From: a virus
Virus record (IMG/VR): IMGVR_UViG_3300045988_035487
Location: 1-64,000 of that record
DNA length: 64,000 nucleotides
Strand: one strand, 5' to 3'
Below the pieces are notes generated by a model. That model saw only the letters and a program-made list of their open reading frames with translations. It ran no database searches and had not been told where the DNA came from. Each line of letters starts with the position of its first letter. Position 1 is the first letter of the stretch. The position numbers and the translations under genes are program-made. Below, piece by piece: positions 549-620 of the stretch.

Positions 549-620
549 GCCCCATTACTTCAGTGGTAGAAGAGCAAATTCTAAACTTGTATGGCGTTGG
601 TTCGAGTCCAACATGGGGCA
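549..620 (+). tRNA. putative suppressor tRNA, anticodon CUA (reads UAG)
   Basis: Perfect 7-bp acceptor GCCCCAT/ATGGGGC. D arm CTTC-AGTGGTA-GAAG. Anticodon arm GCAAA-TTCTAAA-CTTGT (U33, anticodon CTA at 581-583, A37). T arm GTTGG-TTCGAGT-CCAAC. The 31-39 pair is an A/C mismatch. Confidence 0.6.

Follow-up and report, generated by a model that had tools for sequence, protein, structure and literature searches.

The amber suppressors used in the laboratory in Escherichia coli (supE, supF, Su7 and the synthetic tRNA(CUA) series) combine a CUA anticodon with A37-A38 and compete with release factor 1 at UAG. They arise by point mutation of known isoacceptors, so that the residue they insert is known, and Gln or Lys is the usual default charge of tRNAs with this anticodon. 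Expression of such suppressors in E. coli perturbs host gene expression. Among phages, Yutin et al. (2021; PMC7886860) noted that in the Zeta group of crAss-like phages the presence of a suppressor and the presence of recoding are not in perfect agreement, and they proposed either an incipient change of code or the impairment of host proteins by readthrough. A 2025 survey of the Zeta phages (PMC12386605) defines a clade 8 with genomes of 164-188 kb, polA, a GC content of 35.4-36.9%, 20-29 tRNAs and predicted Bacteroides hosts, all of whose members carry a tRNA-Sup-CTA with "no suppression". The same survey disputes incipient recoding, favours a host-directed role and cites work in E. coli and Salmonella on the perturbation of host gene expression by suppressor expression. 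A conserved suppressor in a phage that uses the standard code is an open puzzle in the published literature.

The locus described here, at 549-620 on the plus strand, presents this puzzle in a human gut phage. We hold with high confidence that its tRNA(CUA) is real, conserved and not associated with recoding. Our confidence in a mechanism is low, and for this reason we put the full reading, that a real, selected, non-recoding tRNA(CUA) most likely has termination at UAG within the infected cell as its target, at about an even chance.

The window, by which we mean the whole 64,000-nt stretch that was analysed, has all of its genes on the plus strand, tightly packed under code 11. Pfam matches identify among them a DnaB-type helicase, a Toprim primase, a PD-(D/E)XK nuclease, NrdD, a Dda/PIF1-like helicase, an ATP-dependent ligase, a T4-type PNKP, a PolyA_pol protein, ThyX and a family A DNA polymerase (PolA; 59569-61707, plus strand). 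The PolA is 41-47% identical to those of beta-group crAss-like phages (cr111_1, IAS virus, crAss001) and 99.3% identical to that of MT835470.1, an unannotated 117-kb record from human faeces, whose TerL is ~30% identical to crAss-like TerLs and has no other matches. A first-pass annotation of this DNA had pointed to Bacteroidota phages such as the crAss-like phages, and the similarities of PolA and TerL support a crAss-like identity. The annotation had also appealed to promoter motifs that point to a Bacteroidota host; the Bacteroidota promoter consensus is not enriched in the window (4 matches against 2.8 expected). ThyX and a 101-aa protein encoded beside tRNA(CUA) are found on thousands of metagenome contigs. 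Independent assemblies of 182,199 to 185,147 bp put the genome size at ~182-185 kb; the GC content is 37.6% in the window and 36.4% in MT835470, and the number of tRNAs is ~27, made up of 22 in the window, 4 upstream of it and the CAT-like element described below. These data fit a member of the Crassvirales on a deep TerL branch with frequent introns or homing endonucleases. Since a genome of this size, PolA, the large number of tRNAs and mobile insertions in core genes match the Zeta group (PMC7886860), we assign the window, on this sequence evidence, to the early/replication arm of a crAss-like phage of that group (Crassvirales, PolA type, human gut).

The insertions may be illustrated by nrdD, which is split in the window (44600-45739 and 46634-47671) by ~1.06 kb of additional sequence (45632-46690) bearing an HNH_3 endonuclease ORF (46057-46629). 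MT835470.1 is without this insertion, which is therefore a mobile intron or a homing-endonuclease insertion; an Rfam search of the window, the insertion included, found no ribozyme or intron families. In many strains (L058, L060-L062, L072 and others) TerL is interrupted after approximately residue 200, and the probable cause is an intron or a homing endonuclease. A SNF2/ResIII-type helicase ORF (31338-32483) matches Helicase_C but covers the ResIII profile in its C-terminal part only; the N-terminal part may lie in the ORF at 30213-31055, which would make this another split gene.

For the genes that lie beyond the window we used a composite genome, consisting of L010 (which supplies 10 kb upstream), the window, MT835470.1 and L052 (which adds 8.7 kb past the point where MT835470 stops). 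It covers ~181 of the 182-185 kb, with ~2-4 kb outside. Position 1 of MT835470.1 corresponds to window position 43935, and the two are 96.7-98.9% identical over the 20 kb that they share. The late genes discussed below were read in these near-identical relatives and not in the window's own contig.

According to ARAGORN, positions 549-621 on the plus strand are a tRNA whose anticodon is CTA; the "Pyl" label that it attaches to this call is a reflection of the anticodon only. Rfam model RF00005 matches 549-620 over its full length (model positions 1-71 of 71), scoring 62.7 bits (E = 1e-11) where the gathering score is 29. Divided into its structural segments the RNA reads GCCCCAU-UA-CUUC-AGUGGUA-GAAG-A-GCAAA-UUCUAAA-CUUGU-AUGGC-GUUGG-UUCGAGU-CCAAC-AUGGGGC-A. 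It is 72 nt long, with an acceptor stem of seven perfect pairs (GCCCCAU/AUGGGGC), canonical D and T arms (D stem CUUC/GAAG; T stem GUUGG/CCAAC, T loop UUCGAGU), A73 as discriminator and no encoded CCA. The description of this tRNA in the first-pass annotation, as 72 nt long with a perfect 7-bp acceptor and canonical D and T arms, is thus confirmed by ARAGORN, by Rfam and by direct reading, with the correction that the anticodon stem has four pairs only, the innermost A31/C39 being unpaired. The anticodon loop, UUCUAAA, presents U33, C34-U35-A36, A37 and A38, and the CUA anticodon that had been read in it is the one returned by ARAGORN. We conclude that 549-620 is a genuine phage tRNA with the anticodon of an amber suppressor.

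Similarity assigns no amino acid to this molecule: the sense tRNAs most similar to it, Arg(UCU) and Trp(CCA), reach an identity of only ~0.7. Its identity to the phage's own tRNA-Gln(UUG), a separate gene within the array (13547-13619, plus strand), is 0.60. It has G1-C72, C2-G71, C10-G25 and A73 and is without U1-A72, G2-C71 and G3-C70, so that the signs of descent from tRNA-Gln that characterize code-15 suppressors are not found in it. A blastn search of the INPHARED phages with tRNA(CUA) gave no match, the only close record there being MT835470, which does not include this region. A search of 185,579 prokaryotic species genomes with the 5' half of the tRNA gave a single match, to a tRNA of 72 nt with the anticodon UUC on a 3-kb contig of a Cryomorphaceae MAG (L176, CAZJLZ010000103.1, 1689-1760); 24 of its 26 5' bases are common to the L141 type of tRNA(CUA), one of the variants considered below. 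This UUC tRNA may be a sense-anticodon relative of tRNA(CUA), and its contig may itself be viral.

In the window, tRNA(CUA) is the first of 23 tRNA calls made by ARAGORN and had been described as heading the tRNA array. That position is an artefact of the contig end, because complete genomes contain four more tRNAs, tRNA-Arg(GCG), Leu(CAA), Tyr(GTA) and Gly(TCC), 1.6-6.4 kb upstream of it. Bases 1 to ~50 of the window are an Illumina Nextera transposase adapter (…GTCTCGTGGGCTCGGAGATGTGTATAAGAGACAG) that was left untrimmed, so that the window begins at an assembly end, and the "phage" matches to its first 20 kb are only to the same adapter left in other records. One of the upstream genes, called tRNA-Leu(CAA) by ARAGORN (L010 8202-8276), is only 75 nt long, with a short variable arm and T37, and is atypical of a bacterial-type tRNA-Leu; its D arm is closely similar to that of tRNA(CUA).

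The left neighbour of tRNA(CUA) is conserved. It is the 101-aa ORF mentioned above (206-511, plus strand), which ends in TAG (509-511) 37 nt upstream of the tRNA. Orthologues that are followed by tRNA(CUA) have TAG as their stop and more distant ones without the tRNA have TAA, although this suggested association is a weak one that represents at most three independent lineages. On the right, two bases (C621, T622) separate tRNA(CUA) from a tRNA(CAT)-like element (623-702, plus strand), an 80-nt allele that is not called by ARAGORN and is matched by Rfam at the T arm only; other strains have a canonical 72-nt tRNA-Met(CAT) at this site. Among near-identical strains (further examples of the element at L010 10418-10497 and L011 10418-10489) one allele is canonical, at 72 nt, and the other two measure 80 nt and have an enlarged D loop, these last being missed by ARAGORN and by the Rfam tRNA model. 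The acceptor ends and the CUCAUAA loop are common to all the alleles, and the differences between their stems are compensatory.

The remainder of the array, all in the same orientation and comprising 21 further tRNA genes identified with ARAGORN and Rfam together with small ORFs, extends from 805 to 24479 on the plus strand. ARAGORN also places a tRNA-Arg(TCG) on the minus strand at 7986-8062, overlapping tRNA-Ser(GCT) at 7959-8047 (plus strand). This call recurs in relatives and is without Rfam support, and it is probably a mirror-image artefact. A single C follows the discriminator in 19 of 20 tRNA genes of the window (e.g. at 621, 878 and 1053), and none of them encodes CCA. The motif ATTGTACA is found 10-40 nt 3' of three neighbouring tRNA genes (712-719, 1390-1397 and 1520-1527) and could be a processing or punctuation signal; there are 8 copies in the window against 4 expected. 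A nucleotidyltransferase of the PolyA_pol/CCA-adding family is encoded at 55689-56453 on the plus strand (Pfam PF01743, E = 1e-16) and would presumably add the missing 3' ends to the tRNAs of the phage. The T4-type PNKP (57084-58004) and the ligase (51420-52628) are encoded nearby, and the three together look like a set for tRNA maturation and repair.

Comparison with other contigs bears on whether this tRNA is under selection. Its sequence recurs without a single change in 28 other contigs, in each case 37 nt 3' of the 101-aa ORF, while the adjacent tRNA(CAT)-like element exists as three very different alleles. A scan with the 5' half of the molecule, in which the anticodon was left free, recovered 28 viral contigs with four sequence types, and the anticodon was CTA in all of them. 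In total the family comprises four variants in at least 38 contigs, which we refer to as the window, L022, L023 and L141 types; they all occupy the same locus, and 17-23 differences separate the window type from the L022 and L023 types. The stretch C34-U35-A36-A37-A38 is invariant in 4 of 4 variants. When the variants are laid on a common cloverleaf, 96.4% of the cells are paired and 8 pairs have changed on both sides, in a covariation test that comprises four sequences only. None of 500 shuffles reached the observed values, and slid controls were 27-50% paired. Positions 31/39 form a non-pair in three of the four variants, and the L022 type has C33. By this comparison, purifying selection keeps both the fold of tRNA(CUA) and its CUA-A37-A38 loop, and the preservation of the anticodon through compensatory evolution is new here.

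Although these data speak for selection, the tRNA might be a leftover or a pre-adaptation, captured before a change of code or kept after a reversion and now approximately neutral. Yutin et al. had an incipient code change in mind (PMC7886860), and within the Zeta group the code does change over short distances, some branches being TAG-recoded, some TGA-recoded and some standard. The 31/39 non-pair and C33 fit a relaxation of decoding, and the lack of any adaptation of the genome to suppression, documented below, also speaks for this reading. However, a neutral tRNA should decay or lose its anticodon, whereas here CUA-A37-A38 is invariant, eight pairs are compensatory and the locus is the same in every variant; the same argument is made in the 2025 survey (PMC12386605). 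Further, the recoded relatives use a different tRNA. Two recoded contigs, L092 and L094, each carry two tandem Gln-like tRNA(CUA) genes (L092 15429-15579 and L094 17135-17285, both on the minus strand), alongside up to 20 TAGs per ORF. These have U1-A72 and a Gln-like 5' half, TGyCCTATrGTGTArTGGT, in contrast to G1-C72 in the window tRNA, which is therefore not their precursor. That the window tRNA(CUA) belongs to another lineage than the Gln-like suppressors found in recoded relatives is a second new result. A separate lineage and a selected anticodon both argue against incipient recoding, and we consider it unlikely that the gene is a remnant or a forerunner of a code change.

Signs of adaptation to a suppressor were sought in the phage's use of TAG. 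The first-pass annotation held that the window is in the standard code with TAG as a stop, and this stands: 12 of its 93 ORFs end in TAG, and in the early and middle genes overall the figure is 18 of 146, including ThyX and a PurA-like enzyme. The 45 late-gene stops comprise 41 TAA, 4 TGA and no TAG. This absence was considered as a TAG-specific signal and rejected, since TGA also falls, from 29% to 9%, and the late-gene bias is therefore a general preference for TAA. The distance to the next in-frame stop has a median of 6.5 codons after TAG, 4 after TGA and 8 after TAA. Backup stops after TAG, which have been reported for the Lera group, are thus not seen here, the tails after TAG being no shorter than those after TGA and TAA; in three cases a second TAG follows the first. 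In the lineage of the L022 type (L069, L077 and L101) TerL ends in TAG, with a TAA 4 codons later. As a whole, stop usage, tails and stop conservation reveal no specific adaptation of this genome to a suppressor.

The same data bear on programmed, site-specific readthrough of one or a few TAG-terminated phage proteins, which would yield extended isoforms. The TAG-terminated ORFs of the window would provide substrates, and the identity of the stop is conserved in diverged orthologues, that of the 101-aa ORF included. But TAA and TGA are conserved equally well, so that TAG conservation cannot be regarded as special, and the tails beyond TAG are mostly 1-11 codons long. Readthrough would lengthen ThyX (62751-63665) by 2 aa and the products of 29205-29618 and 16066-16524 by 25 and 21 aa, respectively. 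On the coding strands there are only two same-frame TAG junctions with at least 40 codons on both sides, and neither withstood inspection. At MT835470 112575-113645 the junction joins two ORFs that are paralogues of each other, and the second has a Met of its own 4 codons past the TAG. At window 24976-25509 the 54-codon tail after position 25344 crosses a strain-variable G9 and the frame is not kept; this homopolymer (25399-25407) lies in the 300-nt gap that follows the TAG-terminated ORF 24988-25344, and its changes in length shift the frame. We therefore give programmed readthrough only a slim chance. The lack of any adaptation in the phage genome's use of TAG is the third new result of this comparison, and the failure of the obvious readthrough candidates is the fourth.

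Others might prefer a role that does not involve decoding of UAG at all, in which the molecule would serve as a decoy or substitute substrate for host nucleases that attack tRNAs, as a processing or punctuation element in the transcript of the array, or, with a modified C34, as a reader of a codon other than UAG. The phage does encode the tRNA repair set described above (PNKP, ligase and CCA-adding-family enzyme), and an unpaired 31/39 and C33 are unusual in an efficient decoder. Against such a role, the anticodon and A37-A38 are strictly conserved, a context typical of tRNAs that read codons starting with U, and no nuclease target can be identified from the sequence. We judge a non-decoding role to be improbable.

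It remains to consider the explanation that the first-pass annotation put forward, that tRNA(CUA) decodes TAG as Gln in late or structural genes outside the window (code 15). This proposal failed on the evidence that the annotation had itself named. The late block, on the minus strand of MT835470 from 32,003 to 110,100 (78 kb), is entirely intact under code 11, with ORFs of 2970, 2281, 1594, 1556 and 1529 aa, and the remaining regions of the composite are also normal. PHROGs matches identify TerL (762 aa, covering 78-738 of a 758-position profile), the portal (736 aa) and the major capsid protein (475 aa), and these three, in which the annotation had proposed to look for in-frame TAGs, are all full-length under code 11 with none. 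TerL is also a single ORF of 762-765 codons on IMG/VR contigs that bear tRNA(CUA), e.g. 059371 (L052, L020). A comparison of codes gave summed ORF lengths of 41,464 aa under code 11, 50,949 aa with TAG opened and 52,778 aa with TGA opened; since the gains are about equal, none is specific to TAG. A 279-codon "ORF" with 7-8 TAGs (L142, L150) proved to be an off-frame artefact in a low-complexity part of an SPFH gene. As a positive control we used L092 (178,663 bp) and L094 (174,531 bp), whose largest ORFs contain 6-20 in-frame TAGs and whose other ORFs contain 1-11; their TerL is broken into TAG-bounded pieces, and the TAGs align most often with Q. The test therefore reveals recoding where it is present.

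TAG recoding is common in crAss-like phages (PMC7886860; Borges et al. preprint), and other Zeta contigs that bear tRNA(CUA) genes are clearly recoded, but in a relative that is 97-99% identical nothing interrupts the late block or its TerL, portal and major capsid protein genes. With TerL also intact on contigs with exactly the same tRNA, no coding-strand TAG junction surviving inspection, TAG in service as a terminator, a tRNA that is not Gln-like and no suppression found in clade 8 by the published survey, decoding of TAG as Gln in this phage is hardly credible. Neither in-frame TAG in conserved genes nor a loss of TAG as terminator, two marks of code 15, is seen. On this evidence we have high confidence that the phage uses the standard code in its early and late genes alike, and tRNA(CUA) would then not be the decoder of a TAG-to-Gln gene set.

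The reading that we prefer, with UAG termination in the infected cell as the target of the tRNA, would operate as follows. tRNA(CUA) lies within the early co-oriented array and would presumably be matured with it, a CCA-adding-family enzyme being encoded by the phage. If it is expressed, charged by a host synthetase and decodes as its anticodon predicts, it would compete with release factor 1 at UAG. The resulting readthrough would extend host proteins, presumably with some effect on the host, and also those phage early proteins, ~12% of the total, whose ORFs stop at TAG, and the late genes, nearly all of which end in TAA, would be unaffected. Its role would be in host takeover or anti-defence and not in recoding. 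The unpaired 31/39 in three of four variants and C33 in the L022 type may indicate weak decoding. Against the proposed role, no adaptation of the genome to a strong suppressor is seen. More generally, we suggest tentatively that a clade of very abundant gut phages with the standard code has long kept a suppressor that is not of the Gln type, either as a translational weapon against UAG termination in the infected Bacteroides cell or an anti-defence device, or for the tuning of about a dozen early C-termini; this is a possibility that we would not rate as probable. For annotation, genes of this phage group should be called with code 11 in spite of the tRNA-Sup(CUA), and a suppressor tRNA is not by itself evidence of recoding. 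If host termination is indeed the target, this would be a new kind of takeover function in a highly abundant lineage of human gut phages.

Comparison with known systems places these results in context. The closest is clade 8 of the Zeta survey (PMC12386605), which the window phage matches in every measurable property, including a block of tRNAs where the replication arm begins. A genome within 164-188 kb, polA, a GC content of 35-37% and a tRNA number within 20-29 are all found, and the phage therefore matches clade 8, in which it is placed by shared properties and not by a tree. The phenomenon is consequently one that was already known; the lineage of the tRNA, the covariation and the contrast with Gln-like suppressors are not described in the portion of that paper available to us. 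The code-15 suppressors of crAss-like and Lak phages (PMC7886860; 10.1101/2021.08.26.457843; PMC9523058) resemble tRNA(CUA) in being phage-encoded CUA tRNAs of Bacteroidota gut phages, with the gene located within a standard-code part of the genome, and the difference is that their late genes contain many in-frame TAGs whereas those of the window phage contain none. The laboratory suppressors of E. coli differ in their origin, since tRNA(CUA) has no evident parent with a sense anticodon. Finally, the "pre-emergent" alpha-group phage OKSC01000115 (PMC7886860), in which a tRNA-Gln(TTG) has become Sup(TTA), is similar in having a suppressor without detectable reassignment. That case, however, represents a single recent point mutation in one genome, whereas the tRNA(CUA) of the window belongs to an old family that is fixed in its clade.
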